NCBI GenBank assembly: GCA_020059045.1
Contig: JAGVCW010000021.1
Coordinates: 27,821 to 91,820, forward strand
Length of the DNA: 64,000 nt
DNA from: Minisyncoccota bacterium
GTDB lineage: Bacteria; Patescibacteriota; Minisyncoccia; Phycocordibacterales; Zambryskibacteraceae
Reading direction: 5' to 3'
Shown: piece after piece, positions 31,361 through 53,538 of the stretch
Numbering within the stretch: the first letter of the stretch is position 1
Layout: each line of letters begins with the position of its first letter
Notes under the pieces: model-generated
The model's database searches: none
Told to the model about the DNA's origin: nothing
What the model saw: only the letters and a program-made list of their open reading frames with translations
Made by a program: the position numbers and the translations under genes

Positions 31361-34300
31361 ATGAAAAAGATTGTCATAGCAGTTATTTTGCTCGCAGTGT
31401 TGCTGTTGTCTGGTCCGATTTCGGCTCAAACCCTAGAAGCACAAACCATAAACGACATGTATGCGGTAGTGTTGTCGCTTCAAAACTTGATTCGTCAGTT
31501 AGTTGCGCTTGTTTCTCAGGGAGGAAATCTTGCGCAAGTTACGAACATAGTCACAGTAACTGGGTCAGTCTCTCCTGTACCAGTAACTCTTGGTGACCAG
31601 GCCAATCTTACATGGGACTCAACTAATACAACATCCTGTCTGCTTGATATAGGTACAGCAAACATAACAGGCCAGGCAGTGTCTGGCACATACACTGTGA
31701 CACCAACAAAGTCGATGGATTATATAGTCAAATGTACTGGATCGACTGGCTCAAAATTCGTAAAAGTCCCAGTAGTCGTGGTGGCAGCCTCAACTCCTTC
31801 CACCCCGTCCACTCCAGCAACTCCTTCCACCCCGTCCACACCATCTACTCCATCTACTCCATCTACACCATCTACACCATCTACACCATCAACACCAGCA
31901 ATTCCAAGTGGTCCAATAGTTTTACCAGATTTACCACAAACCTTTTCCGTGTCGGTTCCAGCTCAAACTGGAACAGTCATCTCAGTTCCGGCCGGGAACG
32001 CTGCAGCTTTTCAAGCGGCACTCAACAGTGCAGTCCTGGGTGATGTGATCGAGCTCCAAGCAGGCTCCACCTACACCGGAACATTTACGTTTCCCAATAA
32101 AACTTCTGGCAGCGGCTGGATTACAGTACGCTCCAGTGCCCACAACAGTCTCCCTCAAGGAATTCGAGTAGACCCCGGGGATGTTTCTAAAATGGCTAAA
32201 ATTATCACTAATGCCGTTGGATCAGGGGGGGCAGCATCAGGTTCTGCTATAATTTTTGCTAATAGTGCTCATCATTATTATCTACTAGGCTTAGAAGTGA
32301 CTGCGGCCACTGCAGCCAAGATTGCCACAGGTCCTACTATCCAGATGGACTTTACTACTCCTCTTTCTAATCAGCCCACGAACATTACACTCGATCGCAT
32401 GTATGTTCACGGTCATTCTAATTTAGACATGACCAGATGTATTCTAGCCAACGGTGCCTACATCGCTGTTATCAATAGTTATGTTTCTGAATGTCACTCT
32501 GGAGCGGATGCTCAAGCCATCGAAGTATGGACTGGATCTGGACCATTTAAATTTGTAAATAACCACCTGGAAGCGTCCGGCGAAAATATCATGTTCGGGG
32601 GTGCAGATCCCAAAGTGCAAGGACTCATTCCGTCGGACGCCGAAATTCGTGGAAATTATATTTATACTCCCATTGCCTGGGGGCCCTCGACTCCGTGGAC
32701 TAGAAAAAACTTATTTGAGACTAAAAATGCGCAAAGAGTACTTCTCGAAGGTAATATTCTAGATGGATCTTGGGCAGATGGGCAAGTGGGGTATGCTATT
32801 GTGCTCAAATCTTCAGATCAAGGAGGTGTTGGCACCGGGTGTACTTGGTGTGCATCAAAAGATATTACCGTAAGGTACAACATTATTCGCAATGCAGCCG
32901 GTACAGTGGATATAAGTGGAAAGCAAAACGCTATCGGTACTGCTCCGGCCCTTACCGAACGAATCCTAATTGAACACAACATTTTTGAAAATATTAATGT
33001 TGCCCCATACACCGGGGCTGCCCGACTGCTTAGTTTTAGCCTCGATGTGCGTGATCTTATATATAGGAATAACACTGTTAATACCACGGGCTATCTTCAG
33101 GGTATGATATTAGTGGGTGGAACTCCATCGAACTCTCTGAGTTTCCCGGGTGTCACAAACTTTGAATACAAGGACAATATCACTCCTTTTGGAGAATTCG
33201 GTATATTTGCCACTAACCTAATCGGGGAAGCCCTTTTTGCTGGCTCGCCAAACATTGCTGGTATCTCTAATTATTCGGGTAACGTGACTTACAACAATAC
33301 GTCAGCAAATAAGTACAATGCAACTACTCATCCCACGACTAAACTTTATTCAAGTTACAGCGCAGCAGTGGCCAGTGGTAAAGGCGCAAATACAGCGGCT
33401 GTGCTTGCGGCTACTAAGAATGCGCAAAACGGCGGAGGCGCTGGGACCCAGCCACCTCCTCCACCTCCTCCACCCCCGCCTAACACAACTGTTCCTACCC
33501 CTCCTTCTCCCGTTGCCATTACAACCTATGTTACACCTCCGGCAAACGGAGAGTCGACGCCTCCTTCTGCGGTAAAAAATTTACGTACTTGGGGAGTGTG
33601 CGACAACATGATCGGAGTTACTTGGGATCACGCTACAGATAATTACGGAGTGGCGGGTTATATTATTTCTCGAGACGGACAACCCTATACTATGACGGTG
33701 AGAAGTAGACCTCTCGGCACAACCGGAGGTGTTCCCAACAATACTGCCACCACCATAAGAAATTGGGTCACTGACTCCGGCCGGCAACCCAACACCTCGC
33801 ATTCTTACTCCGTGCAAGCGTTCGATACCTCCAACAACAAAGGCCCCGTGGCTACTTTCTCTGCCAAGACATCAACGGGCGGTTGTTTTGACCCGACCCC
33901 CCCAGTGCCGATGAATCTTAGACTTACAGGTTCGACATTAAATAGCGCGGGGTTAACTTGGGATCCCGTTACAGATTCCCGTTATAACGTAGTTCAATAT
34001 AGAATATATCTGGATTTTCCGCTCTTTACGCCTTTTCCTTTTCCCGCAGCACCTACATTTATGAATCCTGCTACTCCTCCTTTTGTCTATGGGAATCTTC
34101 CCTCAGCTCCTAGTCACAATTTCTTTGTTTCCTCTCGTAGCAACCTTGGTAAAGAGGGTGACTGGACTATGCCTCTTATTATGACTCCCGGTCAAACCAC
34201 GCCTGCTCCTACCGTGATGCTATCCGCTTCACCAAGCTCTGTGATTCCAGGTGGACAAACAATTCTCACCTGGTCTTCTACTAATGCAACAAGCTGTACC

Positions 34301-35746
34301 GCAAGCGGCGGGTGGTCTGGTTCGCAAGCTTTAGTCGGGACTCTTACAATCACACCCATAACAAGTTCACCATACACACTTTCATGTAGTGGAGCAGGTG
34401 GATCATCAATTAAATCAGTAACGGTTACTGTTGGTGGAATCATACCTCCACCACCAAACCCATTGTTTAGTATAGGAGATAGAGCAGAAACCACAGCTAA
34501 CCTAAATGTTCGATCTGGCCCAAGTGTCGATGCAACAGTTTTTGGTATCCAATCTCTTGGATCACTTGGCACCATTATTGAAGGACCAAGTATAGGTTCA
34601 ATTTACACTTGGTGGAATATTAACTTCGATGCGGGTGTAGATGGATGGAGTGCAGAAAGTTTCCTAAAGAAATCTACCATCTCGACACCACCTCCAGCTA
34701 GTCAACCCGTTGTTACTCTTTCTGTTTCACCTTCCACAATCACTTCTGGTTCGCCAGCAACTCTCACCTGGTCTTCTACTAATGCAACAAGCTGTACTGC
34801 AAGCAGTGGGTGGTCTGGTTCTAAGTCCACGTCTGGTGTGCATGGTATTGCTCCTGCTACAAACACTACGTATACACTCTCATGTAGTGGGGGAGGTGGA
34901 TCGTCAAGTAAATCTGTAACAGTCACAGTAATATCTACTACTCCAACTCCAACACCTAGTGATCCTACGCCTACTGACCCAACCCCGACTCCAACTCCAA
35001 CTCCTACACCTAATCCCGTTCCTACCCCAGGAGATGGCCAGGTATGTGCTCAAGTTGCAACATGGGCTAAAAGTCCATCAGGACAAATTAGGCAGTTCCC
35101 AAGTGCATGTATTCCAAGTGGTTGGGTCGTAATAGCATCTCCACTTATAGAAATTCCTAAAATTCCTACGACTCCAATTCCACCTGTTGGAGAGGTTCCT
35201 ACTATCCCAACAACTGAATCTCCAAGAACAGTTATTACTAAACAGCTTTACTTTGGAGTATCTGATCCCCAAGTTACAGCTCTTCAGATTTTCTTGAGGT
35301 CAAAAGGACTGTATTCAGATGACATTACTGGATTCTTCGGTACAAAAACTCTTCAATCTGTGCGTCTATACCAGACATCAAAGGGGATAGATGCGACAGG
35401 TGCTGTGGGCCCACAAACAAGAGCATCAATATCGGCTGAGACGACAGGTATCACTACGCCATCTACACCAACGACGCAAGCCCCAAGCGCACCTACGACC
35501 GGTTCGCTACCAAGAACACTGTATCGAGGTATATCAGGTAGTGATGTTTCATCTCTACAGACCATACTTATGAACCTGGGATATTACAATGACGAGATTA
35601 CAGGATACTTCGGTGTGAAAACGGAAGCGGCAGTTCAGGCATTCCAGAGAGCAAATGGAATAGTATCTTCAGGTAGTCCTGGTACTACTGGGTATGGGCT
35701 CGCAGGGCAACTAACAAGAGCAAAACTTATTGAACTAAGCCAATAA
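31361..35746 (+). CDS. Giant secreted multidomain surface protein. Contains a signal peptide, a PT-repeat linker and a parallel beta-helix. A poly-Pro tract is followed by an FN3-like module. Two Ig-like Cys-pair repeats, one SH3b module and two C-terminal PG_binding_1 domains complete it.
   Basis: Signal peptide MKKIVIAVILLAVLLLSGPISAQT. (STP)n linker. Beta-helix repeats (NNHLEASGENIMFGG, GNYIYTP, LEGNILDG). QPPPPPPPPPPN tract. Duplicated LTWSSTNATSCTASGGWSG...YTLSCSG modules. SH3b-like segment NVRSGPS...WWNINFDAGVDGWSAESFL. Two LYxGxSGxDVxxLQ...GYFG..T..AV..FQ modules. Confidence 0.85.
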   Translation: MKKIVIAVILLAVLLLSGPISAQTLEAQTINDMYAVVLSLQNLIRQLVALVSQGGNLAQVTNIVTVTGSVSPVPVTLGDQANLTWDSTNTTSCLLDIGTANITGQAVSGTYTVTPTKSMDYIVKCTGSTGSKFVKVPVVVVAASTPSTPSTPATPSTPSTPSTPSTPSTPSTPSTPSTPAIPSGPIVLPDLPQTFSVSVPAQTGTVISVPAGNAAAFQAALNSAVLGDVIELQAGSTYTGTFTFPNKTSGSGWITVRSSAHNSLPQGIRVDPGDVSKMAKIITNAVGSGGAASGSAIIFANSAHHYYLLGLEVTAATAAKIATGPTIQMDFTTPLSNQPTNITLDRMYVHGHSNLDMTRCILANGAYIAVINSYVSECHSGADAQAIEVWTGSGPFKFVNNHLEASGENIMFGGADPKVQGLIPSDAEIRGNYIYTPIAWGPSTPWTRKNLFETKNAQRVLLEGNILDGSWADGQVGYAIVLKSSDQGGVGTGCTWCASKDITVRYNIIRNAAGTVDISGKQNAIGTAPALTERILIEHNIFENINVAPYTGAARLLSFSLDVRDLIYRNNTVNTTGYLQGMILVGGTPSNSLSFPGVTNFEYKDNITPFGEFGIFATNLIGEALFAGSPNIAGISNYSGNVTYNNTSANKYNATTHPTTKLYSSYSAAVASGKGANTAAVLAATKNAQNGGGAGTQPPPPPPPPPPNTTVPTPPSPVAITTYVTPPANGESTPPSAVKNLRTWGVCDNMIGVTWDHATDNYGVAGYIISRDGQPYTMTVRSRPLGTTGGVPNNTATTIRNWVTDSGRQPNTSHSYSVQAFDTSNNKGPVATFSAKTSTGGCFDPTPPVPMNLRLTGSTLNSAGLTWDPVTDSRYNVVQYRIYLDFPLFTPFPFPAAPTFMNPATPPFVYGNLPSAPSHNFFVSSRSNLGKEGDWTMPLIMTPGQTTPAPTVMLSASPSSVIPGGQTILTWSSTNATSCTASGGWSGSQALVGTLTITPITSSPYTLSCSGAGGSSIKSVTVTVGGIIPPPPNPLFSIGDRAETTANLNVRSGPSVDATVFGIQSLGSLGTIIEGPSIGSIYTWWNINFDAGVDGWSAESFLKKSTISTPPPASQPVVTLSVSPSTITSGSPATLTWSSTNATSCTASSGWSGSKSTSGVHGIAPATNTTYTLSCSGGGGSSSKSVTVTVISTTPTPTPSDPTPTDPTPTPTPTPTPNPVPTPGDGQVCAQVATWAKSPSGQIRQFPSACIPSGWVVIASPLIEIPKIPTTPIPPVGEVPTIPTTESPRTVITKQLYFGVSDPQVTALQIFLRSKGLYSDDITGFFGTKTLQSVRLYQTSKGIDATGAVGPQTRASISAETTGITTPSTPTTQAPSAPTTGSLPRTLYRGISGSDVSSLQTILMNLGYYNDEITGYFGVKTEAAVQAFQRANGIVSSGSPGTTGYGLAGQLTRAKLIELSQ
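31795..31910 (+). repeat. Tandem 9-nt (Ser/Thr-Pro) coding repeat
   Basis: TCCACCCCGTCCACTCCA... encodes (STP)n x about 12. Confidence 0.8.
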
Positions 35747-35760
35747 GAAAAGATAACAAA

Positions 35761-35789
35761 AAATCTTGTCTACTTAGACAAGATTTTTT
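35761..35789. terminator. Bidirectional intrinsic terminator
   Basis: AAATCTTGTCTA-ctt-AGACAAGATTTT with T-runs on both sides, between the giant gene (+) and rplT (-). Confidence 0.65.
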
Positions 35790-35809
35790 GTTATAAAGAT
35801 TTTAGAGAC

Positions 35810-36154
35810 TTATTTCACCTGTTCAAATATTCTTTTGAAAGTTTCTGGGTTACTTCCTGCTAATGTCGAAAGTATTTTTCTATCTATCAAAATATTTTTC
35901 TTCTTCATATTACCCATAAATTTACTGTAAGTACCTCCAAGTTCGCGAAGTGCGGCATTAATACGTACATTCCATAGGCGACGGAAATCACCCTTTTTGT
36001 CTCTTCGGTGAGCAAAGGCATAGCTTCCAGCATGAACAATCGCCTCGTTTGCCGCTCTCTCCTTCTTACTACGAGAAAAGCGATAGCCCTTTACTTGTTT
36101 AAGGATATTACGGCGTGTCTTTAATGCATTTACTCCCTTCTTTACTCTTGTCAT
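35810..36154 (-). CDS. rplT: Ribosomal protein L20
   Basis: MTRVKKGVNALKTRRNILKQVKGYRFSRSKKERAANEA. Confidence 0.9.
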   Translation of the reverse strand: MTRVKKGVNALKTRRNILKQVKGYRFSRSKKERAANEAIVHAGSYAFAHRRDKKGDFRRLWNVRINAALRELGGTYSKFMGNMKKKNILIDRKILSTLAGSNPETFKRIFEQVK

Positions 36155-36193
36155 TTGATTGATTTCTACTCGCTACTTATTACTTTCTACTAT

Positions 36194-36385
36194 TTATATA
36201 TTAACTAAATACCTGCTTCTTTCTTTGTTTGCCATTACGATTGAACCCTGGCGTTTCTTGCCAAGCTGACTGCGGCGACTTTCCTTGGCGTTGAAGTGAT
36301 TCTGGCCAGCCTTACGTGCTAAAACTTTGCCGCCCTTTGTGAGCTTCAATCTTTTCGAGTACGACTTATTGGTTTTCATTGCCAT
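36194..36385 (-). CDS. rpmI: Ribosomal protein L35
   Basis: MKTNKSYSKRLKLTKGGKVLARKAG. Confidence 0.85.
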   Translation of the reverse strand: MAMKTNKSYSKRLKLTKGGKVLARKAGQNHFNAKESRRSQLGKKRQGSIVMANKERSRYLVNI

Positions 36386-36429
36386 AGGAAGCTAATCTTA
36401 ACTATTTTTGGAATATTGTCCAGCACGTA

Positions 36430-36472
36430 CCCCACACTTACTTGGCAGTGAAACTGCCAAGTAAGTGTGGGG
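36430..36472 (-). promoter_or_regulatory. 19-bp perfect hairpin between infC and rpmI (candidate attenuator or L20-binding structure)
   Basis: CCCCACACTTACTTGGCAG-tgaaa-CTGCCAAGTAAGTGTGGGG. Confidence 0.45.
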
Positions 36473-36644
36473 TAACTTAACATAATAATTATTTATATAA
36501 ATCTTTGGCCCTTTTGCAGATTTAAATATTTAGTACAGTTCCTGGTCTTATTAGTACGAATGTGCGAATAGCATTGAATTACCTATACTGATAAATCTTC
36601 ATCTAAAATTCAAAAAATAAAGACCACTTGGTTGTTTGCAGGTG

Positions 36645-37184
36645 CTAATTGCTTGTATTCTGCTTTCCTCCTTCGTTTGATTTCTCAACGAGGAGGGTAA
36701 GACCTTTAGGACTTTTCTGGGGAGGTTCAGCAATTTTATACTCTTCAGAAATGAGCTTAAGGATTCGCTCAAGTCGAGTGTTTAGAAAATTTCTATCTAG
36801 GTACTTCGCACGCCCGGGTAGGAATAGATCTATCTTAACTCTGTGACCTTCTCGGAGCCACTCTGATATCTTCTTAGCTTTGAGAGCAAGGTCATGTTCT
36901 CCAGTACCGAGCTTCACTTGGGCGCTCTTCACTTCCACACTATGACTCTTTGCTTTGCTTGCTTTAGCTTTTTTGTTTTCTAGATATTGGAATTTTCCAA
37001 AATCCATTATCTTTGCTACTGGAGGGGTAGCATTGGGAGAGATTTCTATTAGATCAAGTCCGTACTCCTTGGCTTTTACAAGGGCAGATGATAGTTCCAA
37101 TACACCTATATTTTCACCTTCTGGGCCTATTACTCGTACTTCTTTCGCTTTTATTTGATGATTAATTCGTGTTTGTGTACTCAA
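36645..37184 (-). CDS. infC: Translation initiation factor IF-3
   Basis: INHQIKAKEVRVIGPEGENIGVL...LDLIEISPNATPPVAKIMDFGKFQY. Confidence 0.9.
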   Translation of the reverse strand: MSTQTRINHQIKAKEVRVIGPEGENIGVLELSSALVKAKEYGLDLIEISPNATPPVAKIMDFGKFQYLENKKAKASKAKSHSVEVKSAQVKLGTGEHDLALKAKKISEWLREGHRVKIDLFLPGRAKYLDRNFLNTRLERILKLISEEYKIAEPPQKSPKGLTLLVEKSNEGGKQNTSN

Positions 37185-37243
37185 CAGGGTGTATGTTTAA
37201 TGTCGGTTAATACTAAATGATTATTCAATGCAGCTATAATATA

Positions 37244-37828
37244 CTAATTATTCTTTAATTCAAATGATCTCATAATGATGTCGAAATCGCGAACAATTTG
37301 ATCATTTGGGCCGAGGTAAGTGACACTCGACATAATAATATTCCCCTTGTGTGAGAAGACAATGGAGTTTCCCTCATATAGCCCAGACCACCTGTAGGCA
37401 TAACCGTCACGACTGCCAACTTTTGCTGTGAGTAGTATCCCGTCAGGTGATAATTTAAAGTTTGAGTTGCCATTGCCGCGTATCCAGCTCTCTCCAGTTT
37501 CGTTCTCTAAGTTTTGGAACACGTCGATAGTGATAGCGGTGGGCCCCTCACGTGCAGTTGTACTAGCCGTGCCTTCTCGTAGAGTCCGATTTTCTTCCGA
37601 ATCTTCTGTTAATACTAGTACAGTGTGCATTCGTTCAGAATTTCCTAAGTCCTTCTCTTCCAGAAAATAATTTTCGGGGTAATCAAATGAAAATCCAAAC
37701 AAAGATGAGTTGTACGTTTTAGTATTTACGTCTCCCGTGTTAGTCCCAAGGTTCTTTATTTGAAGTGTCCAAACAATAAGTCCAAGCACGACAATTATTA
37801 TCCCAGTTATTATAATTTTTTTAGTCAT
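37244..37828 (-). CDS. Membrane-anchored hypothetical protein
   Basis: N-terminal TM helix MTKKIIITGIIIVVLGLIVW followed by a soluble domain. Confidence 0.5.
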   Translation of the reverse strand: MTKKIIITGIIIVVLGLIVWTLQIKNLGTNTGDVNTKTYNSSLFGFSFDYPENYFLEEKDLGNSERMHTVLVLTEDSEENRTLREGTASTTAREGPTAITIDVFQNLENETGESWIRGNGNSNFKLSPDGILLTAKVGSRDGYAYRWSGLYEGNSIVFSHKGNIIMSSVTYLGPNDQIVRDFDIIMRSFELKNN

Positions 37829-37940
37829 ATAGGTATTATAGCAAAGAGGTGTTTTCTATGAGAAATATGCCTTATTTTTCAAAAAAAAAGACAAGAAACG
37901 TTAACCCACAGAAGAGAATCGGTTGTAATATAATTTATAT

Positions 37941-38204
37941 ATGGACGAATCATTCAAAAAGTTGCCGCCTGAAGATTGGGTTTCAGAAAAAACTCTTGCT
38001 CGAGAACTAAGACTTACCCCGGAAGTCATCAATCATGAGATAGGGTGGCAGATAGAGAAGATTTTAGAGGAAAGTAATGGAGAGGGGATAGAGTGGATAA
38101 ATAACCAGGAACGCTATTGGTCACCTGAAGCTGCCGAAAAAGTGAAAGCAGGTATTATTGTCCGCGTGCAGGCAATAAGTGCAACAGTAAACAAAAAACA
38201 CTAA
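37941..38204 (+). CDS. Hypothetical small protein
   Basis: 87 aa ORF. Confidence 0.35.
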   Translation: MDESFKKLPPEDWVSEKTLARELRLTPEVINHEIGWQIEKILEESNGEGIEWINNQERYWSPEAAEKVKAGIIVRVQAISATVNKKH

Positions 38205-38239
38205 GTAAAACTAGTAGGGTATAAGTTTTCTAGCTAAAT

Positions 38240-38653
38240 TTAAAGCATAGAAACTATTATAATCCCAGAGATCATGAGAGTAACGATAGAGTAGAGTGCG
38301 TTTATCATAAAGAGTTTCATTGATTTCATGTCCCAGAGAACTGAACCGATGTGTATTGGTACCTGGAAGCCAAGCCATGCCCATAATGCAAGACTTAGTG
38401 CTCCCGCAATAGATGTCACTTCTTGGATAGCGATAAAGTGAGCAAGTATATAAGTAGAAATAAGTGCGAATATAAACATAAAGATGTAAGACTTCGCTAC
38501 ACCTTTAGTCTTCGCACCCGCCATCATCTCGTCTGTAATGCCAGATTCTCTTTGCCAAATTTTGCCAAACAGCGGTCCATACCAGAGGCCACCCACAATC
38601 ATGGAAGCTATTCCTCCCATAAGTACTGCCCAATAATTTATTGCAATTTCCAT
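38240..38653 (-). CDS. DUF1761-like small membrane protein
   Basis: MEIAINYWAVLMGGIASMIVGGLWYGPLFGK pattern. 4 TM helices. Confidence 0.5.
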   Translation of the reverse strand: MEIAINYWAVLMGGIASMIVGGLWYGPLFGKIWQRESGITDEMMAGAKTKGVAKSYIFMFIFALISTYILAHFIAIQEVTSIAGALSLALWAWLGFQVPIHIGSVLWDMKSMKLFMINALYSIVTLMISGIIIVSML

Positions 38654-38764
38654 AATAAATATTATTACTTTTTAATGTGTGTATTCTACCACTCTAAATG
38701 TTTTGGGGTATAACAAAAAACCGACCACGACTGATAGAAGTGGGAGGCTTTTTGTAAGGAGTAA

Positions 38765-39019
38765 TTATTCTTCTTCTGTAAACGATCCATCAAGTAGATC
38801 CTGGACATTCTTCAAAGCATCTGCACATGTATCCCTTCCTGCTTCAGTTGTCATATCACTACATGCTGGCCCCACTTTGGCTCGAAGGTCTGCAAGCTCA
38901 GTATTGAAGTCAGATACACTATCTGGCTTATTCAACTCCATAATGTAGAGAGCACCTACAATCACTAGCGCAATTGCTAGAACGTAGATCCATATGGTTT
39001 TTGTATCTTGTTGTGCCAT
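38765..39019 (-). CDS. Small membrane-anchored protein
   Basis: 84 aa. TM helix followed by an acidic tail. Confidence 0.4.
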   Translation of the reverse strand: MAQQDTKTIWIYVLAIALVIVGALYIMELNKPDSVSDFNTELADLRAKVGPACSDMTTEAGRDTCADALKNVQDLLDGSFTEEE

Positions 39020-41155: not shown

Positions 41156-41243
41156 CCTGAGGGTGTTTTTGCTATTTCGCTCCCAGGTGGTTTACCACGA
41201 GCGAGCCTTCGACCTGGCTCAGGCCAGGGCGAAGCGAGTCGAG

Positions 41244-41678
41244 TGGAGATGGGCGGAATCGAACCGCCGTGCAATAGAAGAGATGAAAGATTTCTACAAG
41301 AGGTAGTTTGTTTCAATCTGCCTGTTGGCAGATATTTAGACTCTGTAAGTATGGAACAAACAAAATCTTACAAAGTCGAGCTTCTACATTTCGGAAACAA
41401 GCAAAGCAATTTGTTTCCAGAGTCTCAAGTTATTACGCGAGCAACTTGTTATGAGACATCACAAGTGCTAACGTCGCTTAGGCCGACCCAGACACCGAAG
41501 TGTCGGGTTAAGAGGCGTAAACGAAAGCGAAATCCTTAGCTCCAAAATATGGAGAAACTAGAGACCCAGCTTTTGCGACAATGCTGTTTGCAATTATCGG
41601 TTGTGGCGGATTTAAGAGTCACCACAGCTCTCCCTTGCATCTATCAAATGAATTCTACTGTCTAGGCCGATCATCCCC
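41244..41678 (-). ncRNA. ssrA: tmRNA (transfer-messenger RNA)
   Basis: Minus strand. The 3' end reads GGCGGUUCGAUUCCGCC-CAUCUCC-A (T-arm plus acceptor strand). The 5' end GGGGAUG pairs with it and includes a G3:U wobble, the AlaRS identity element. An internal frame AUAAUU-GCA-AAC... resembles the E. coli resume-codon context and encodes ANSIVAKAGSLVSPYFGAKDFAFVYAS*. The smpB gene lies 350 bp upstream on the same strand. Confidence 0.65.
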
Positions 41679-41746
41679 TAAATCATCTTGACTACAAGAT
41701 GATCGGGCGAACAATTTGCGGAGCAAAATTGTTTTAGCCCCACAAA

Positions 41747-42019: not shown

Positions 42020-42023
42020 AAGC

Positions 42024-42467
42024 CTATTTATATTTCAAAGTTCTTCTCATCTCTCTCTCGGTCTCTCTTTTCTTTATACTCTGACGTTTGTCCCGTGTTT
42101 TCTTACCACGGGCTATGCCGATTGCTACCTTGATTTTTCTTCCTTTATTATACACCGAAAGTGGTACTACTGTCAAACCTCTTTGCCTCTCAGAATCCAT
42201 AATAGTTTTAATCTCAGCTTTGGTTAGCAGGAGCTTGCGGTTTCTTCTCGAATCATAACCTTTTGGGGTGTTCGCAGCCTGATAGGGAGGAATATCTGAG
42301 CCCACGAGGAATGCTTCATTACCTCGTGCGATTACGTGCGATCCGTCGAGTGACCCACGTTTCATGCGCAAAGCTTTAACTTCAAATCCAAGCAGCTCTA
42401 TACCCGCCTCGATTTTCTCGAGTATTTCGTAGTTAAACCCTACCTTTTTGTTCTCAACTAGTGACAT
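42024..42467 (-). CDS. smpB: SsrA-binding protein SmpB
   Basis: RKLLLTKAEI...GLTVVPLSVYNKGRKIKVAIGIARGKKTRDKRQSIKKRETEREM. Confidence 0.85.
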   Translation of the reverse strand: MSLVENKKVGFNYEILEKIEAGIELLGFEVKALRMKRGSLDGSHVIARGNEAFLVGSDIPPYQAANTPKGYDSRRNRKLLLTKAEIKTIMDSERQRGLTVVPLSVYNKGRKIKVAIGIARGKKTRDKRQSIKKRETEREMRRTLKYK

Positions 42468-44892: not shown

Positions 44893-44898
44893 ATTTTT

Positions 44899-45756: not shown

Positions 45757-46174
45757 TAATTTTGGCAGCTTGGGCTAGGTGCTTGTCATTCGCATCAATG
45801 TTGCTATTCTGTACTTAGAATCGAGCCCTCGAGGTGCAAATGGACGTAACTCTCTTGCTCGAGTATTGGAAGCTTATGGAAAGAGAGAAAGAGCTTGCCG
45901 ATATGGGGCAAGCAGAGTCAAAAATAAATGTTCGTAAAGAGCAAATACAAAAAGCTCTTGTGTCTACTCATGAAGAGATTGTAGAGAAAATTGAAGAACT
46001 GCATGTATCCTAGCTACGTACTCGCACAACCCAAGGTGTGAGTTTTTGTTTCAATTTTTATACATCTTAACCCACCCCGCATAATTTATTACCCTATTCG
46101 TACGAATAAGACCAGTAGATTTTGTTTTATATATAGAAGGAATTAGCAAGGAATCATTGCTTTAATTTTCCGTT

Positions 46175-46693
46175 TTAGTGTTCACTACTTTCAAGTAATG
46201 AAGACTCTCTATCTTGAATTCTTATAAACGGAGTGAATATGACACCTGCTAGGAGTATACCGAGAGAGTTGCTTATAAGATCAAGCCAAGTGTCGTTTAT
46301 TGTTGTCGCCATTACGAGATTAGTATAGTTTTGAAGGAAAAATTCGAAAATCTCGTTTCCTACTCCGAGTGCAGTTACGACAAGTGCAGTAAATACTAAA
46401 AATTGGAATCTACTTACTTTTGCTCCTGAATCTTTTACAGCAAGAAAGCAAATGAGAAATGCGGCGAATCCTCCTGCAAAGCCATGCTGAATCCTGTTGG
46501 CTATTTCGCGATCCGGAGTTAGATACACGATTGCGAAAGCTACAACACAGAACAAAACTATAATTCCAAGTGATCGAGAAGTGTTGCCATCTCTCATGTT
46601 CATTTCGTTATCGTTTGCAAAAAACTTAGAGAAGAGATATCTAAGAGGGAAGTAGGCAATACAGTATGTAATTGTAGTTAAAATTGAAAACAT
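46175..46693 (-). CDS. VanZ-like membrane protein
   Basis: Start MFSILTT at 46693. GNEIFEFFL motif. 4-5 TM helices. Confidence 0.5.
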   Translation of the reverse strand: MFSILTTITYCIAYFPLRYLFSKFFANDNEMNMRDGNTSRSLGIIVLFCVVAFAIVYLTPDREIANRIQHGFAGGFAAFLICFLAVKDSGAKVSRFQFLVFTALVVTALGVGNEIFEFFLQNYTNLVMATTINDTWLDLISNSLGILLAGVIFTPFIRIQDRESSLLESSEH

Positions 46694-46694
46694 A

Positions 46695-48476
46695 TTATTC
46701 TTCTCGTACCGCACTCTGCTGTCTCCACAAGGCCGAGTAGAGACCGTTTTTTGAAAGCAGCTCCACGTGACTACCAGCTTCGGACAAGCTGCCCTTTTCG
46801 AGAACATATATTGTATCAGCGTGTGCGATTGTTGACAGCCTATGAGCAACCATCACTATTACAAGATCAGGTTTGGTCTTTGCAATGTCTTGTATTGTTT
46901 TTGTAATCTCTTTTTCTGTAATCGAGTCTAGACTAGATGTCGCCTCGTCAAATATTATTAAGTCAGGATTTCGTAGTAGCGCTCGTGCAATGGCAAGTCT
47001 TTGGCGTTCCCCACCAGAGACCTTTATGCCACCTTCACCAATCTTTGTATCAAGTCCCTCTGTACTCCGCTCAATAATAGAAAGCACTGCCGCACCACGT
47101 AGAGCCTCCAAGCACTCTTCATCACGAGCTTTCGGATTTACGAAGAGCAAGTTTTCGCGAATGGTGCCTGCGAAGAGCTGAGTTTCTTGTGATACGTATC
47201 CTATGCGACGACGGAGAAGGTCGTAATCAATATTTTCTCCAGAAATATTATTAACTAACACTGTGCCTTCTGTGGGTTTATACAAGCCTACAAGTAGTTT
47301 AATCGTTGTAGATTTTCCAGATCCTGATGGTCCGACGAAAGCAGCTACTTCTCCCTTCTTAATTTTGAAAGTTAAATCTTTAACCGCAGGGCTATTGCCT
47401 GTTGCATGAGTGAACCCAACCCGCTCGAACCGAATACTATCGAGTGCCCCAAGCGTTGTTGGATTTTCTGGTTTTACCTCTGGCTTTTGTTTCAGTATGT
47501 CATCGAGCTTCTCCATACTTGCACGAGCTTCCTGGAAAATGTTTGCAACGGTTCCAAGCTCGCCAAGCGGTCCAAATACGAAGAAAAGATATATGTATAG
47601 ACTGAAGAATTCTCCAAACGTAATGAGCTTCTCATAAATGAGGTACATCATTATAAGAAGTAAGACTGACCGGATAGCGTTTATGAGTGTGCCCTGTACG
47701 AAGCTAAGAAGACGAATGACTTTGATCTTTCGTAGCTCAAGAGATAATATTTTTTTATTTACTATATTGAGTCGATCTGTTTCTTGGTTTTCAAGCCCTA
47801 GAGATTTTACAAGTTCTACATTGCGCAATGTTTCTGTTGTCGATCCTGAGAGAGCGGCCGTTTCTGTCACGATCTCTTTCTGCATTGCCTTTATGCGTCG
47901 CGTAAGGAAAAAGGTTACAGTTCCAACAGTAGGAATGATAAGAATATACATGAGCCCCACAAGCCAGTGAACATAGAAACCGTATCCTACTACGAAGATA
48001 ATAGAAACAAGTGGTAGAAAAATAATTCCGACAGCGGCACCTATGAGCTGTTCAGAATCCTTACGAGCCTTCTGAAGCTTTTGTAATAGCTCACCAGATC
48101 TTTCATCTTCGAATGCGGCATAGGGGAGAGAGAATGAATGCGCAACACTTTTTTCATACATTGTTGCACCCACTCGCTGAGTTACCGTGCTTAAGTAGTA
48201 GTCTTGAAAGTTTTTCGCGACTCTTGAGACAAAAGCTACACCGACGGATGCAAGAAGCAGGAGTATTATTCCCTGGAAGAATTCTTCCCGGGGTATCTCA
48301 AAGGCTCGAGACGCATAGTTGTCTACAATAAGTCTGAAAATCTGAGGGTCAAGAAGTGAGAAGACTTGGTTAATGGTTGCAAGAACAAGCGCGAAAGTAA
48401 GCATCACTTTCTGCTCCTTTAGGTATACAAGAAGTTGTCGCATGGCACCCATAATACAGCAATACCAAGTACCCAC
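46695..48476 (-). CDS. ABC exporter, fused permease/ATPase (MsbA-like)
   Basis: 6 TM helices. GPSGSGKST, VSGGERQRLAIARAL, LIIFDEATSSLD. Confidence 0.9.
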   Translation of the reverse strand: MGTWYCCIMGAMRQLLVYLKEQKVMLTFALVLATINQVFSLLDPQIFRLIVDNYASRAFEIPREEFFQGIILLLLASVGVAFVSRVAKNFQDYYLSTVTQRVGATMYEKSVAHSFSLPYAAFEDERSGELLQKLQKARKDSEQLIGAAVGIIFLPLVSIIFVVGYGFYVHWLVGLMYILIIPTVGTVTFFLTRRIKAMQKEIVTETAALSGSTTETLRNVELVKSLGLENQETDRLNIVNKKILSLELRKIKVIRLLSFVQGTLINAIRSVLLLIMMYLIYEKLITFGEFFSLYIYLFFVFGPLGELGTVANIFQEARASMEKLDDILKQKPEVKPENPTTLGALDSIRFERVGFTHATGNSPAVKDLTFKIKKGEVAAFVGPSGSGKSTTIKLLVGLYKPTEGTVLVNNISGENIDYDLLRRRIGYVSQETQLFAGTIRENLLFVNPKARDEECLEALRGAAVLSIIERSTEGLDTKIGEGGIKVSGGERQRLAIARALLRNPDLIIFDEATSSLDSITEKEITKTIQDIAKTKPDLVIVMVAHRLSTIAHADTIYVLEKGSLSEAGSHVELLSKNGLYSALWRQQSAVREE

Positions 48477-48497
48477 AAAATATTTATGATAACAAAA

Positions 48498-48528
48498 CTA
48501 CTCCGTCACGCCGTGACGGAGTAGTTTT
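48498..48528 (-). terminator. Intrinsic terminator (perfect palindrome)
   Basis: CTACTCCGTCACG|CCGTGACGGAGTAG with flanking T/A runs. Confidence 0.55.
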
Positions 48529-48538
48529 GTTATAGAGC

Positions 48539-48739
48539 CTACATTGATGGCCGAGAATCGCAATCTCTGCAATTCTTTTTGTGTGTGAAGATTTCGTAAA
48601 TAGCGGCAAGACCTACAAGGACGTATATGATTTTTACAATCATAGCCGGGATTCCCCAAGATCCTAGTCCATAGCTAAATGCTTCGAGAAGCCAGTTTAA
48701 GCCCCCAATAATAAGTAAAACGAAAGCAACTTTATGCAT
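48539..48739 (-). CDS. DUF378-like small membrane protein
   Basis: VAFVLLIIGGLNWLL pattern. 66 aa. Confidence 0.55.
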   Translation of the reverse strand: MHKVAFVLLIIGGLNWLLEAFSYGLGSWGIPAMIVKIIYVLVGLAAIYEIFTHKKNCRDCDSRPSM

Positions 48740-48792
48740 AATTTCTTTCTAATTAATAATTTGAAACTACGTTTAGTATATCAAGTTATGCA

Positions 48793-48866
48793 AGAATATT
48801 TGTCCACCCTCCACGATTTGAACGTGGGACCCTCGAGGTATAAGCTCGATGCTCTAACCAACTGAG
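48793..48866 (-). tRNA. tRNA-Ile with anticodon UAU (reads AUA)
   Basis: Minus strand: CCACCCU-UA-GCUC-AGUUGGUUA-GAGC-A-UCGAG-CUUAUAC-CUCGA-GGGUC-CCACG-UUCAAAU-CGUGG-AGGGUGG-A. Perfect cloverleaf. The anticodon-loop middle triplet is UAU. The D-arm is typical of Ile/Met. Confidence 0.7.
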
Positions 48867-49017
48867 CTAAGGGTGGTATAGCGCTCAAATACTATATCAA
48901 ATATGGAAATCCTTCAATTATTACAGTCGTGCGGTTAAGTGTCCCAGCTATCCACAACGTGAGTATTCACATTGTTATAACCTAAGGGTATACTTCTAAT
49001 CAAGTTGCGGTCCTGTC

Positions 49018-52000
49018 TTGAAACCTTATTTATTCTTAACTTCTCTTAATAATATGTTCTCTAAAAAATTGCCATTAGTAATTGGTTTTGTTTTTGCTTT
49101 TCTTTTTATTGGACTATCTGTAGATGCACAAACTACTTCTCTAAGTTTGACGAGAAACCTAAGTTTTGGTTCTAGCGGCACAGACGTCAGCTCTCTCCAA
49201 CAATTTTTAATATCACAAGGACATTTGTCTTCTGGGAACGCCACAGGTTACTTTGGCCCCTTGACTCAAGCTGCCGTGCAAAGCTTTCAGCGAGCGCAAG
49301 GGATCGTTACTACAGGAACTGTTCAGACAACTGGGTACGGTTTAGTGGGCATACGAACACGTGCAGCCTTGGCTACATTTACGGGAGCTCAAGGCACCTT
49401 TACGCAGAATGCTACTATTGGTACTACTTTTAATACCGCAGTTTCTACGACTCTACCCCCGACCGTGGATCTAAAAGTTAATGGTTCGGATGGGCCTGTC
49501 TTGTTGCCTCCGTCTATTTCGATACAAGCCCACCAACAAGCAAACTTATCCTGGTCCTCGACTAACGCTACCAGTTGTACTGCATCGGGGGGTTGGAGTG
49601 GTACCCAAAAAACTTCAGGCAGTCAGTCATTTAAACCAACAGTAAATACTCTATATATAATTACATGTACAGGATCGGGTGGAAGTGCTAGCGATGAAGT
49701 AACTGTAAATAAAATTGGGGCCCCAAGCTCAAGCATGTTTAATCTCGGGGAAGACGTTGAAACTATTTATAGTAGCGGAAATATTTTTAATTATCCCGCT
49801 CCTGACCCCAGGGGAGGTCAAAGTATGTTTGGCGGTGTAAAAGGTAGAGTTGTTGGGGGTCCAGCGGCAGGCACATGTTGTGGCCATATTTTTTGGCATG
49901 TGGATTATGTAAACGGAATGAAGGGGTGGACCGAAAAAGATAATCTTAAAAAAGCTATCATTAATTCTACCTATACTCTTTCAAATATGGGAGATGTGAT
50001 TGTAACGAAAACCAACTTCACCCAGGCTAAGATAGTTACTTTTACAATGACTGCGATTTCTGGTAAACCCGTAGTATCAGCCGTAATAAGCTCTTCCCTG
50101 CCATCTGGCGTAACAGTCAGTCCTGATCATTATAACTCTGGTAGTCATAACGCTTGTGGCGCAGACCCAAGTGCCGCAGACCCAACTTGTTCGCATAAAC
50201 CTGTTTTTTCCATAGCTAGTAACGCGGCTACCGGAGTCTTCCCAGTTACTCTGACTACTTATGGTCCCAGCGCTCCTACAGAAACCAGCACATTTAATCT
50301 GCATATTCTTCCCGCTGGAACGGCTGTTCCCACCGTATCTCTAAAAGCTAACAACACACCTGGCACACTTTCTATCACTAACGGTACCCAGATCTCTCTC
50401 ACTTGGGACTCAACCAATGTTACGAGTTGTGACCTTAGTGGAGACGGCTGGAGTGGCACAAAATATGCGGCCAAAATGCCAAGTCCAGGATTCTCTGCTA
50501 TACCGCTATCCAATAAAACCACCACATACATTATTATTTGTTCTGATGTTGCCGGCCAAAAGAGCGCGCCGAGCACGGTGGTGGTCACGACCACGGCCGG
50601 TTCTCAAACTAACAAATTTAACCAAAATGATAAGGTTGAAACCAATGCTGATGCTGTAAACGTTCGATCTACGCCGAATGGTAATCCTCCTATAGATTCT
50701 AAAAGCAAAGGAGCTAAGGGCGTGATTATGTGGGATGCTACGACAAGCGCAGGGGGTCATAATTGGTGGGAGATCAACTACGATACAGGAAAAGACGGCT
50801 GGACTGCGGAGCAGTATCTTAATCTTATATTGTCTACAGCTACTCCGCCTCCGCCACCAGGTACCCCAACAGTCGAACTTAAAGCTAATAACACTCTTGG
50901 CTCACTTTCTGTCACTAACGGTACCCAGATTTCTCTCACTTGGGTCTCCACGGATGCTACCGGTTGCGCCCTTAGTGCCAACAGCTGGAGCAGTACGAAC
51001 TTTTCGGCCCAGATGGGAAGTCCAGGATTCACTACTACTCCGTTGTCTAATACCACTACCACTTATACTATCACTTGCTATGATGCAAATGGCGTGAAAA
51101 GTGCACCAAGTACTGTAGTGGTGACAACAACTGGCTCAAGTAATACATTTAAAGACGGAGATACGGTGGAGGTGACAAACACGACCACTTCAGTCAATGT
51201 CCGCTCTTCTGCAAACGGAACAGTAATTGGCACTCAGCCACTTGGGGCTCTAGGATTAATTAAAGGTACAAGTATTAACTCTGGAGGATACGACTGGTGG
51301 AATGTGGATTACGTTCACGCCCCTGACGGCTGGACCGCAGAGCAGTTTCTTCAAAAGAATGCCGGAGGAATCCCAAGTTCCAGCAGAGTGAGTCTTCAAG
51401 CCACTCCAAATTCAGTGGCAGTCAATACCCCTGTTCTCCTTATCTGGGCACTTAGCAACTGGCCCACCAGCAGTCCCACTACTACATGTAATGCGACCGG
51501 TGGCACGGCGGGATGGCCCGGTACAAAATACGGTTTTATGACCGGCGGACAAGCTGTAGTTACTCCTACAACTGCTGGTACTCACACTTTCAACATTGAC
51601 TGTAGCGGTTATAAAGACTCGGTGACTGTGACGGTGACTACTGCGGGTTCAACCAACAAACCTCCAGTCGCGAATGCTGGCCAAGACAAAACAATCACTC
51701 TACCCACGAGCTCCGTTTCTGTGGTGAGCCCTCCAGTCGACGCAACCGATCCTGATGGTTCAAGCGACATAAATACCCATACCTGGTCTTTCGTCTCTGG
51801 TCCTGCTGGTGTTACTCCAGGCATCGCCGCTCCCGGCAACAAGAACAGTACTTTTTCTGGTCTTACTGTTGCAGGTACCTACACTTTCCGCTTCACCGTG
51901 GAAGATAAAGGGGGACTCAGGGCAACCGATGACATGAATGTAGTTGTTTTAACAAGTGGCACGCAGTCATCGGGTCCAGTTGTCGATCTAAAAGCAAATG

Positions 52001-53538
52001 GTTCAAACGGACCAGTAACTCTTTCAAAGGGTGATTCGGTTCAGTTTTCTTGGACGGGATCCAACTTAGTAAATTCTTGTTCCATTAAGGACGAAAATAA
52101 TAGCACTATATCTGGGGGGACAGGACTCAATCCTTTGGGGGGTACTCTCACTCTAGTAAATCTTACTTCTACACACACCTATACAATTACTTGTTTTACA
52201 AGTAACAACAGTACTGCAACTGATAGCGTGACGGTAATTATTTCTGGAGTATTCACAACCCCAGTTGTAGATCTCAAAGCAAATGGCTCAGACAATCCTA
52301 TAACGCTTACTGCGAACCAAGATCTTACTTTGAGTTGGACAATACAAGGAGTGTTACCAACTTGCTCATTGCGTGGTTGGGGAGTGTCCGGCTCTAATTC
52401 ATCTGGCTATGTTGAACTCTCTTCTAAAGTATTAATCGGTTCAGCATTCACTATTACCCCAACTACTGCAGGCTATCCGACTGCTGCTGGCAATATGTAC
52501 GAGATCAACTGTACAGTTTCTGGAGCAGTCACAAAGTACGATCGAGTAATAGTGACGGCAGCAGCGGTAACACCTCCAGGAGGAGGGACTACTGCATCTC
52601 CAGTAGTAACTTTATCTGCTAGTTCTGGCTCTGTAGCCGATGGTCAATCTGTTGCTCTGACTCTCACTTCTCAAAACGCTACTTACTGCACAGGAAATGT
52701 TTTTTCTGACAACAGAACTTCTGGCACGGCATATGTTGTTCCTCCCTTTGGCGGAAATACTAGCGTGGGCTACTCTGTAATATGTTACAACGGTCTTGGC
52801 GGCCCATCTAAAACTGCCTCCGTAAACGTCACCAAGTCAACGTCTGGAGGCTCACCCTCTAGCGGGGCACCGACACTTGATTTCAAAGCTGATAACTCTA
52901 AGGGGCCACTTTCTGTAGGAACTTCCGGGTCTGTATATCTCAGCTGGTCAACAACAAATGTATCTAGCTGTACGTTGAGTAATGCTGGAATATCGTACGT
53001 TTCACTTCCTAGTGGTTTCTGGAATGCAACTCCAAGTAGCTACACTTCGAAAGTCATATACACTATGAGCTGTACTGGGACAAACGGCGCTTCTATATCA
53101 GAATCAATCACCGTATATCCTGTCTACACTACAGTAAGCGTCAACAGTAGCTATCCTCTACCAAAAACTACTTATACGCTACACAATTCCCAAGACCTTA
53201 ACTTGGCTTGGAGTGCCCCAAATCTTCCAGCAGATGCACACTGTGATCTCACTTCACCTGTTAGTCTTACAAACCCCGCAGGTCAGAAGACCGGATCATG
53301 GAAGTTTACATCTACATCAACAAACTATCCTCCAAACAATGTGAGCAGCTGGTATTCACCTGGAATTGTCTACACTGTTACATGTAGTAATTCTGGCGGC
53401 ATCGTAGGCATGGCCACGGCCAATATTCTTCTTGACCCAAATACTACGAGTCTCAATAGCTCTAGTTCAAACCAACTAGCTGCTATATTTTCAGCCATAC
53501 AAAACATTTTGGCTGAGCTTAGTCTATCTGCTCGGTAG
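49018..53538 (+). CDS. Giant secreted multidomain surface protein. After a signal peptide comes an N-terminal PG_binding_1 domain. The rest is many Ig-like Cys-pair repeats, three SH3b-like modules and a PKD-like domain.
   Basis: Probable start MFSKKLPLVIGFVF at 49054. PG-binding module LTRNLSFGSSGTDVSSLQQFL...GYFGPLTQAAVQSFQ. LSWSSTNATSCTASGGWSG repeats. SH3b-like modules with the WWEINYDTGKDGWTAEQYL pattern, three times. PKD-like VANAGQDKTITL...GTYTFRFTVEDKGGL. Confidence 0.85.
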   Translation: MKPYLFLTSLNNMFSKKLPLVIGFVFAFLFIGLSVDAQTTSLSLTRNLSFGSSGTDVSSLQQFLISQGHLSSGNATGYFGPLTQAAVQSFQRAQGIVTTGTVQTTGYGLVGIRTRAALATFTGAQGTFTQNATIGTTFNTAVSTTLPPTVDLKVNGSDGPVLLPPSISIQAHQQANLSWSSTNATSCTASGGWSGTQKTSGSQSFKPTVNTLYIITCTGSGGSASDEVTVNKIGAPSSSMFNLGEDVETIYSSGNIFNYPAPDPRGGQSMFGGVKGRVVGGPAAGTCCGHIFWHVDYVNGMKGWTEKDNLKKAIINSTYTLSNMGDVIVTKTNFTQAKIVTFTMTAISGKPVVSAVISSSLPSGVTVSPDHYNSGSHNACGADPSAADPTCSHKPVFSIASNAATGVFPVTLTTYGPSAPTETSTFNLHILPAGTAVPTVSLKANNTPGTLSITNGTQISLTWDSTNVTSCDLSGDGWSGTKYAAKMPSPGFSAIPLSNKTTTYIIICSDVAGQKSAPSTVVVTTTAGSQTNKFNQNDKVETNADAVNVRSTPNGNPPIDSKSKGAKGVIMWDATTSAGGHNWWEINYDTGKDGWTAEQYLNLILSTATPPPPPGTPTVELKANNTLGSLSVTNGTQISLTWVSTDATGCALSANSWSSTNFSAQMGSPGFTTTPLSNTTTTYTITCYDANGVKSAPSTVVVTTTGSSNTFKDGDTVEVTNTTTSVNVRSSANGTVIGTQPLGALGLIKGTSINSGGYDWWNVDYVHAPDGWTAEQFLQKNAGGIPSSSRVSLQATPNSVAVNTPVLLIWALSNWPTSSPTTTCNATGGTAGWPGTKYGFMTGGQAVVTPTTAGTHTFNIDCSGYKDSVTVTVTTAGSTNKPPVANAGQDKTITLPTSSVSVVSPPVDATDPDGSSDINTHTWSFVSGPAGVTPGIAAPGNKNSTFSGLTVAGTYTFRFTVEDKGGLRATDDMNVVVLTSGTQSSGPVVDLKANGSNGPVTLSKGDSVQFSWTGSNLVNSCSIKDENNSTISGGTGLNPLGGTLTLVNLTSTHTYTITCFTSNNSTATDSVTVIISGVFTTPVVDLKANGSDNPITLTANQDLTLSWTIQGVLPTCSLRGWGVSGSNSSGYVELSSKVLIGSAFTITPTTAGYPTAAGNMYEINCTVSGAVTKYDRVIVTAAAVTPPGGGTTASPVVTLSASSGSVADGQSVALTLTSQNATYCTGNVFSDNRTSGTAYVVPPFGGNTSVGYSVICYNGLGGPSKTASVNVTKSTSGGSPSSGAPTLDFKADNSKGPLSVGTSGSVYLSWSTTNVSSCTLSNAGISYVSLPSGFWNATPSSYTSKVIYTMSCTGTNGASISESITVYPVYTTVSVNSSYPLPKTTYTLHNSQDLNLAWSAPNLPADAHCDLTSPVSLTNPAGQKTGSWKFTSTSTNYPPNNVSSWYSPGIVYTVTCSNSGGIVGMATANILLDPNTTSLNSSSSNQLAAIFSAIQNILAELSLSAR

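Follow-up and report, generated by a model that had tools for sequence, protein, structure and literature searches.

Two large modular proteins with predicted export signals, peptidoglycan-binding domains and Ig-like repeats as candidate wall-tethered surface proteins of a Patescibacteria genome

In a 64,000-nucleotide stretch of contig JAGVCW010000021.1 from a Minisyncoccota bacterium (the window, below), two large genes, g1 and g2, encode modular proteins that we interpret, with a probability of roughly 55%, as Sec-exported surface proteins tethered to the cell wall, g1 being a probable glycan-active enzyme and g2 a stalk resembling fibrillar adhesins. Both are intact open reading frames (ORFs) on the plus strand, of 1461 and 1506 amino acids (aa), as a first-pass annotation of this DNA had reported. 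That annotation also called the two proteins giant and paralogous. At about 1.5 thousand aa, they are large for the lineage rather than giant, and they are not collinear duplicates: they have module types in common but not the order of the modules, and the genes lie 13 kb apart.

Domains were assigned with Pfam at its gathering cut-offs (23 bits for PG_binding_1, 27 for the PKD family PF22352, 27 for SH3_3 and 25 for fn3), with NCBIfam, with our own profiles of two recurrent modules, and with AlphaFold2 (AF2) models compared by Foldseek. The features of g1 are the following.

31361-35746, plus strand: g1, predicted secreted modular protein of 1461 aa, stop codon included (ORF list and translation)
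31361-31426, plus strand: signal-peptide-like N-terminus, MKKIVIAVILLAVLLLSGPISA (sequence reading and hydrophobicity scan)
31562-31777, plus strand: two-Cys immunoglobulin (Ig)-like module, copy 1, aa 68-139, immediately before the beta-helix (own module profile, E = 5e-26)
31787-31900, plus strand: (STP)n linker, encoded by a 9-bp tandem repeat
31901-33427, plus strand: predicted right-handed parallel beta-helix, aa 181-689 (AF2 model and Foldseek)
33449-33484, plus strand: Pro12 linker (translation)
33566-34180, plus strand: two weak fn3-like domains, aa ~736-838 and ~848-940 (Pfam fn3, 16 and 15 bits against a cut-off of 25)
34220-34429, plus strand: two-Cys Ig-like module, copy 2, aa 954-1023 (profile, E = 8e-28; AF2; Foldseek)
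34466-34690, plus strand: SH3b-like module, aa 1036-1110 (Pfam SH3_3, 23.5 bits, E = 6e-5, sub-threshold)
34718-34927, plus strand: two-Cys Ig-like module, copy 3, aa 1120-1189, DNA repeat partner of copy 2 (profile and DNA repeat)
35249-35686, plus strand: two PG_binding_1 domains, aa ~1297-1353 and ~1386-1442 (Pfam PF01471)

The features of g2 are as follows, numbered from the first codon of the maximal ORF.

49018-53538, plus strand: g2, maximal ORF of 1506 aa from a TTG codon (ORF list and translation)
49054-49131, plus strand: signal-peptide-like N-terminus, MFSKKLPLVIGFVFAFLFIGLSVDA (sequence and hydrophobicity scan; sole strongly hydrophobic stretch)
49174-49323, plus strand: PG_binding_1 domain, aa 53-102, N-terminal (Pfam PF01471, 46.8 bits)
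49507-49710, plus strand: Ig-like module, copy 1, aa 164-231 (module profile)
49738-49962, plus strand: divergent SH3b-like module, aa ~241-315 (own SH3b profile, domain E = 9e-7; no Pfam match)
50005-50337, plus strand: region with four Cys, aa ~330-440, between the first SH3b-like module and Ig-like module 2 (sequence)
50356-51372, plus strand: duplicated unit of Ig-like plus SH3b-like module, aa 447-785, made up of module 2 (447-522), SH3b-like (534-606), module 3 (626-701) and SH3b-like (711-785) (profiles)
51394-51639, plus strand: Ig-like module, copy 4, aa 793-874 (module profile)
51676-51948, plus strand: K319L-like PKD domain, aa 887-977 (Pfam PF22352, 50.3 bits against a cut-off of 27)
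52000-53427, plus strand: Ig-like modules, copies 5-9 in tandem, aa 995-1470, at 995-1074, 1090-1180, 1199-1272, 1293-1367 and 1381-1470 (module profile)
53455-53535, plus strand: C-terminal amphipathic-helix-like tail, NQLAAIFSAIQNILAELSLSAR, aa 1480-1506 (sequence reading alone)

The call of secretion made in the first annotation agrees with the hydrophobicity scans, in which the signal-peptide-like N-terminus is the only hydrophobic stretch of each protein (aa 1-22 in g1). Motif and hydrophobicity scans across the whole of g1 and g2 found neither an LPxTG motif nor a further transmembrane segment. With regard to g2, a public "hypothetical protein" (P0241), called on a 103,936-bp contig held by NCBI and the Joint Genome Institute, is 100% identical to it over 1494 aa and starts at the ATG at 49054. 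This ATG is probably the true start of g2, giving a protein of 1494 aa, and with it a typical signal peptide, MFSKKLPLVIGFVFAFLFIGLSVDA, falls at the N-terminus.

Each protein has its PG_binding_1 domains at one end, as had been read at first: C-terminally in g1, in two stretches scoring 97.2 bits, and N-terminally in g2. The g2 domain is 57% identical to the last one of g1 (BLASTP, g1 1379-1456 versus g2 40-118). We infer that these domains would tether both proteins non-covalently to peptidoglycan, most simply to that of the cell's own wall.

The element that most characterises the two proteins is a module of about 70 aa with a pair of Cys. The first-pass annotation had noticed this Cys-pair module in both proteins and had taken it for Ig-like, which our profile, AF2 and Foldseek bear out. 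It had placed two copies in g1, at 34195-34440 and 34700-34925, in agreement with our copies 2 and 3, and at least three in g2; by an iterative profile of our own the counts are three and nine, with domain E-values between 1e-18 and 1e-28, and the remaining ORFs of the window contain no copy. Both Cys are invariant across the copies, and one Trp and one Tyr are nearly so. An AF2 model of g1 aa 942-1200, spanning a module, the SH3b-like domain and a second module, has a predicted local distance difference test (pLDDT) score of 92.8 and shows two seven-stranded sandwiches around a small all-beta domain. In Foldseek, this model is matched best by proteins with Ig domains in tandem, Dscam, titin and ICAM among them. 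The assignment of the module to the Ig-like beta-sandwiches is thus supported by the model at the level of fold. By sequence, searches with the module returned no Pfam match better than E = 0.26 and no NCBIfam match, and homologues with multiple copies likewise lack a Pfam domain in these regions. We also considered the module as a relative of the PKD domain, but hhalign profile comparison detected no relation between the two.

The module is abundant. Its profile matches 14,823 cluster representatives among 1.84 billion at E <= 1e-3, and 5,123 at E <= 1e-10, with up to 47 copies per protein. Its fusion partners include GH5, DUF4038 (GH140-type), GDSL esterases and DUF11, and the named sources are Patescibacteria and also metagenome-assembled genomes (MAGs) of Gammaproteobacteria. 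In view of this abundance and taxonomic spread, the module is neither rare nor specific to the candidate phyla radiation (CPR). At least seven further large proteins combine this module with SH3b-like and PG_binding_1 domains, the anchor standing at one end or the other.

Between these Ig-like modules lie other small domains. Modules of SH3b type, rich in Trp, had been proposed for both proteins; our profile places one in g1 and three in g2, all four mutually related, although every one of them falls below the Pfam SH3_3 (PF08239) cut-off (23.5 bits in g1; 12.7 bits or nothing in g2). In the AF2 model, the g1 copy is an all-beta domain of about 65 aa with pLDDT > 90. The PKD domain that had been recognised in g2 scores well above its Pfam cut-off and matches PDB 6nz0 with E = 4e-9. 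The four-Cys region of g2 at aa ~330-440, about 110 aa long, has no family match. The (STP)n and poly-Pro linkers of g1, likewise seen at first reading, correspond to a 9-bp tandem repeat at 31791-31905 (about 11 copies, 82-94% matches) and to a run of 12 prolines. Also in g1, a small two-Cys motif, VCAQVATWAKSPSGQIRQFPSACIPSGW, at aa 1227-1256 (35039-35128), stands between a TP-rich linker and the PG_binding_1 domains and is without a Pfam match.

Chains of the Ig-like module, together with fn3-like, PKD and SH3b-like domains and Pro/Ser/Thr linkers, would form an extended stalk in both proteins. With nine Ig-like, three SH3b-like and one PKD domain and no enzyme, g2 would be such a stalk, of the fibrillar-adhesin-like kind; its distal end consists of a divergent Ig-like module and a short helix. 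Apart from itself, g2 finds no closer database match than one of 28% identity, covering 47% of its length. We also observed that an amphipathic-helix-like segment is present at the end opposite the PG_binding_1 domains in both proteins (g1 aa 27-58, 31439-31534; g2 aa 1480-1506), with a shared motif, SLQNLIRQL in g1 and AIQNILAEL in g2. A regular-expression search of the other ORFs of the window with this motif found only g2. Judging by its sequence, the motif could be an interaction or oligomerisation element.

What distinguishes g1 is its large beta-helix, which would be the distal cargo of the stalk. AF2 predicts aa 181-689 to be a right-handed parallel beta-helix with a pLDDT of 89.8 and a predicted template modelling score of 0.93. 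In a Foldseek search of the PDB, this model matched GH136 lacto-N-biosidases, PL6 alginate lyases/chondroitinase B, GH28, PL9 and phage tailspikes with a probability of 1.0, as well as phi29 gp12, the matches having a template modelling (TM) score of about 0.45-0.5 and 10-15% identity; those in BFVD were tailspike and pectate-lyase-superfamily proteins. From this model we are confident that the region is a member of the pectin-lyase-fold superfamily, and the original label of a pectate-lyase-like beta-helix is right at that level. Pfam, AF2 and Foldseek thus uphold the beta-helix, PKD and Ig-like calls rather than pointing to unrelated folds.

The beta-helix belongs to a widespread family, about 500 aa long, that spans Acidobacteriota, Gemmatimonadota, Planctomycetota and Patescibacteria. 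At least 556 homologues are present in the protein collection, at about 36-48% identity, and the named sources are Gemmatimonadaceae, Blastocatellia, Acidobacteriaceae, Phycisphaerae and Doudnabacteria. Among the homologues there are various fusions, to Big_2, fn3, PKD, type IX secretion system tails, Ricin-B lectin and Malectin. In an alignment of 55 members, 21 columns are invariant, many of them charged, and g1 keeps all 21. These columns include D165, R166, D203, Q205, E228, D246, K269, N270, E273, K275 and R279 (domain numbering), and the invariant D, R, D, E, D, K, E, K and R are concentrated in the central coils of the helix. When the family profile was compared with lyases in the PDB, the match was confined to the N-terminal cap (about 35-50 aa; PL31/PL6 alginate lyases, E = 7.6e-9). 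Given that so many of the invariant residues are charged and that homologues are fused to lectins, the most likely role of the g1 beta-helix, as far as sequence and model can indicate, is that of a glycan-active enzyme that binds and cleaves polysaccharide.

The same domains lend themselves to an offensive role. According to this alternative, g1 and g2 would be released or host-targeted weapons, whose PG_binding_1 and SH3b-like domains dock on the wall of a host or prey cell while the beta-helix depolymerises capsule, teichoic acid or another wall glycan in the manner of a tailspike. Endolysins and lysostaphin-type enzymes use such cell-wall-targeting domains, most PDB entries matched by the PG_binding_1 domains are wall hydrolases, endolysins or L,D-transpeptidases, and the fold matches of the beta-helix include tailspike depolymerases and phi29 gp12. 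Moreover, the cultured members of the group to which this bacterium belongs are described in PMC12206443 as obligate epibionts. However, neither Pfam nor NCBIfam recognises a peptidoglycan hydrolase domain in g1 or g2, g2 is without any catalytic domain, and long Ig-like stalks with terminal PG-binding domains suit an anchor plus stalk better. We regard the weapon as an unlikely explanation, if one with a genuine claim to attention. A related idea, that g1 itself derives from a phage or tailspike gene, was rejected: it is surrounded by housekeeping genes, and no phage or mobile-element genes are found in the context of g1 and g2 in the window.

The DNA encoding the modules bears signs, in g1, of local homogenisation or recent duplication. 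The first-pass annotation had described near-identical DNA repeats with identical stretches of 55 bp. These figures do not hold: module copies 2 and 3 of g1 have about 80% DNA identity over about 270 nt, their exact runs reach 36 bp at most (34264-34299 = 34762-34797), and the internal repeat of g2 (50341-50594 versus 50878-51131) is 74% identical, with a period of 537 nt corresponding to one Ig-like module plus one SH3b-like unit. The pattern of codons is more telling than overall identity. In a 20-codon core, LTWSSTNATSCTAS.GWSGS, the two g1 copies agree at 56 of 60 nt and use the same codon at 15 of 17 informative positions, whereas the g2 core, which encodes nearly the same peptide, agrees at 41 of 60 nt and has 4-5 of 16 codons in common with either g1 copy. 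Since the g2 core shares so few codons for the same peptide, peptide-level selection alone fails to account for the DNA identity in g1. Within g1, identical codons are clustered in the core compared with the rest of the module (16/17 versus 11/27; Fisher p = 4e-4, hand count). Local gene conversion, or a comparatively recent duplication with divergence outside the core, can explain this codon pattern. The original suggestion of ongoing intragenic recombination is therefore upheld as far as homogenisation or recent duplication in g1 is concerned, but no evidence indicates that recombination is still going on. Between module copies of a homologous gene in a related genome (see below), DNA identity reaches 84-87% over 220 nt. 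As high identity between copies is seen in the relative too, intragenic homogenisation appears, from these sequences, to be a property of this protein family.

Repeats of this kind raise the suspicion that the ORFs or their repeats are assembly artefacts, or that the genes are decaying pseudogenes. Repetitive genes in MAGs are indeed prone to mis-assembly, and the exact g1 product is absent from the public collection. On the other hand, both ORFs are unbroken over 4.4-4.5 kb, and the repeats, at 74-80% identity, are too diverged for easy collapse or chimerism, which makes a collapsed assembly, named in the first annotation as a possible refutation, unlikely. Furthermore, g2 is an identical public gene call on the contig of 104 kb, the two Cys and the core Trp/Tyr are kept in every module copy, and g1 retains all invariant residues of its beta-helix family. 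We consider this explanation very improbable indeed.

The relatives of these genes indicate how the family changes. MAGs whose SecY is 77-81% identical to the one encoded in the window carry the labels Zambryskibacteria, Parcubacteria, Paceibacteria or Patescibacteria. Many further entries among these matches are titled 'uncultured Candidatus Saccharibacteria'; they stem from a single bulk submission and are interspersed with the Zambryskibacteria and Paceibacterota matches. The host is therefore a member of Paceibacteria (CPR/Patescibacteria) that resembles Zambryskibacteria, as the first annotation had implicitly guessed. Of the homologues of g1 that we found, the closest is a hypothetical protein of 1446 aa (P0246; MAG GCA_964603485.1, contig CAZRVE010000003.1), from a genome whose SecY is 77% identical to that of the window. 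It contains six Ig-like modules, two SH3b-like modules, a beta-helix and one PG_binding_1 domain. As in g1, a module directly precedes the same beta-helix (47% identity over 660 aa), the PG_binding_1 domain is C-terminal, and there are arrays of module, SH3b-like domain and module (54% identity). Unlike in g1, the module/SH3b array is N-terminal of the beta-helix rather than C-terminal, the fn3-like pair and the (STP)n linker are missing, and there is one PG_binding_1 domain rather than two. The next gene, encoding 1128 aa, has an fn3 domain, four modules, two SH3b-like modules and a second beta-helix (34% identity), and the gene before it also has modules; there are thus three consecutive module genes (L089 1-9700), two of them with a beta-helix of the g1 type. 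This comparison indicates that the lineage keeps the combination of domains but rapidly alters their order, copy number and sequence. Such change, which would be far faster than that of housekeeping genes, would be explained by duplication in tandem, gene conversion at a local scale and the shuffling of domains. A metagenome scan with the beta-CASP gene upstream of g1 and with 10-kb flanks returned only matches of at most 53% identity, on short contigs.

A purely structural function is a further alternative, in which g1 and g2 form an envelope or surface coat, a protective or spacing layer without a specific partner, and the beta-helix acts on the cell's own or on environmental polysaccharide, in scavenging or in remodelling of wall glycan. 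The PG_binding_1 anchors and the highly repetitive, Ser/Thr/Gly-rich stalks would suit a coat, and the module is not specific to epibionts, its ~14,800 clusters including Gammaproteobacteria MAGs in which it is fused to GH5, DUF4038/GH140-type or GDSL esterase domains. Very fast divergence and shuffling among close relatives is more typical of diversifying pressure from partners or phages, however, and no S-layer-type lattice domain was found in the two proteins. We therefore hold a coat to be quite improbable.

The genomic setting is one of housekeeping genes. Genes for IF3, a DUF1761 protein, a GNAT acetyltransferase, transfer-messenger RNA (tmRNA), SmpB, FtsH, an ABC transporter and tRNA-Ile lie in the interval between g1 and g2, which are separately encoded and outside one operon; a ribosomal-protein/SecY/Adk cluster is located upstream, and RecG and GuaA downstream. 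The GC content over the two genes (32001-36000 and 50001-54000) is 0.44-0.49, against a background of about 0.41, and the GC skew is negative. Horizontal transfer as the origin of the raised GC content was rejected, as the Thr/Ser/Pro/Gly/Ala-rich composition of the proteins accounts for both GC content and skew.

We return to the reading of g1 and g2 as wall-tethered surface proteins, against which several points must be weighed. PG_binding_1 and SH3b domains also target lytic enzymes, so that the wall of another cell is possible as the site of binding. The SH3b and fn3 assignments are weak, being sub-threshold by the curated cut-offs. The fold matches of the g1 beta-helix are at superfamily level only (TM about 0.5, 10-15% identity), and aa 181-689 match 0 Pfam families and no curated CAZy-type family. 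The list of Foldseek matches also includes PfbA (4mr0), a beta-helix protein that is a pure adhesin; going by the models, the distal beta-helix of g1 could be adhesive or enzymatic. A Pfam search found no recognised adhesive tip domain in g2. Finally, the exact g1 protein, unlike g2, is absent from a public collection of 15 billion protein sequences, for which differing gene prediction, filtering or a difference in sequence could be responsible.

By analogy with other surface proteins, a role of g1 and g2 in attachment to a host is plausible. We know of no account of how Paceibacteria/Parcubacteria attach to and exploit partner cells, nor of any member that is well cultured, and g1 and g2 are concrete, testable candidates for surface contact in this group. 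A bolder version, which we put forward tentatively and regard as rather unlikely, is that they constitute the contact apparatus of a Paceibacteria epibiont: g2 would be an adhesive fibril and g1 a wall-anchored depolymerase, from an uncharacterised family of beta-helix enzymes, that opens the capsule or wall glycan of the host, and the module would be an undescribed domain family diversifying by intragenic conversion so as to keep pace with hosts or escape phages. Surface proteins that are large, shuffled and rich in repeats are to be expected in such genomes, and the more useful leads are thus the two families. The two-Cys Ig-like repeat, with about 14,800 protein clusters and no Pfam family, is a good target for domain curation, and the beta-helix family, which has no assigned activity, is a good target for enzyme discovery.

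Some observations elsewhere in the window concern other genes. A full-length tmRNA that ARAGORN missed lies at 41241-41678 on the minus strand (Rfam, 101.5 bits), beside smpB (42024-42467, minus strand). The tRNA-Ser at 61097-61186 (minus strand) has the anticodon ACU, with A at the wobble position and the loop TTACTAA, and the tRNA-Ile at 48802-48876 (minus strand) has the anticodon UAU. Both anticodons are uncommon among bacteria and may be relevant to how this lineage decodes its codons. The flanks further encode a DUF5677 protein (63046-63990, minus strand; E = 2.9e-24) and a weak, sub-threshold PsbP-like protein (37244-37828, minus strand), neither with an evident tie to g1 or g2.

Three known systems invite comparison with g1 and g2. 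The first comprises beta-helix carbohydrate-active enzymes and tailspikes. Like PL6, GH136 and GH28 enzymes and tailspike depolymerases, g1 aa 181-689 combine the fold with charged, invariant residues in the central coils; the family also has the N-terminal cap motif common to PL31/PL6 lyases, and relatives with lectin-type carbohydrate-binding modules. It differs from them in its low similarity (10-15% identity, TM about 0.45-0.5), in having no Pfam or NCBIfam membership, and in lacking trimerisation and a phage context.

The second is the class of fibrillar-adhesin-like proteins, among whose defining anchor domains PG_binding_1 is listed (Monzon, Lafita and Bateman 2021, PMC8286594). Three of the four features of this class that can be tested by sequence are present in g2, namely a predicted extracellular location, a repeated stalk and an anchor domain. 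More generally, g1 and g2 resemble the class (PMC8286594) in being extracellular by prediction and long, with a stalk of tandem beta-sandwiches, a terminal wall anchor, fast evolution and variable architecture. They depart from it in that no distal adhesive domain is recognised and that their stalk domain lies outside the Pfam stalk families. In g1, an enzyme-type beta-helix takes the place of a classical adhesive domain.

The third is closer to the host. Large surface-targeted proteins, such as those of more than 1,500 aa in Absconditicoccaceae, have been proposed as host-contact factors in Patescibacteria (PMC13059738). The hypothesis of host attachment, raised in the first annotation, is thus a reasonable one for Patescibacteria surface proteins and already standard, hence not new. 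Although the hosts belong to different Patescibacteria classes, g1 and g2 have much in common with the Absconditicoccaceae proteins (PMC13059738): the same superphylum, a large size for a reduced genome, a signal peptide, adhesion-type repeats and the hypothesis of host recognition.

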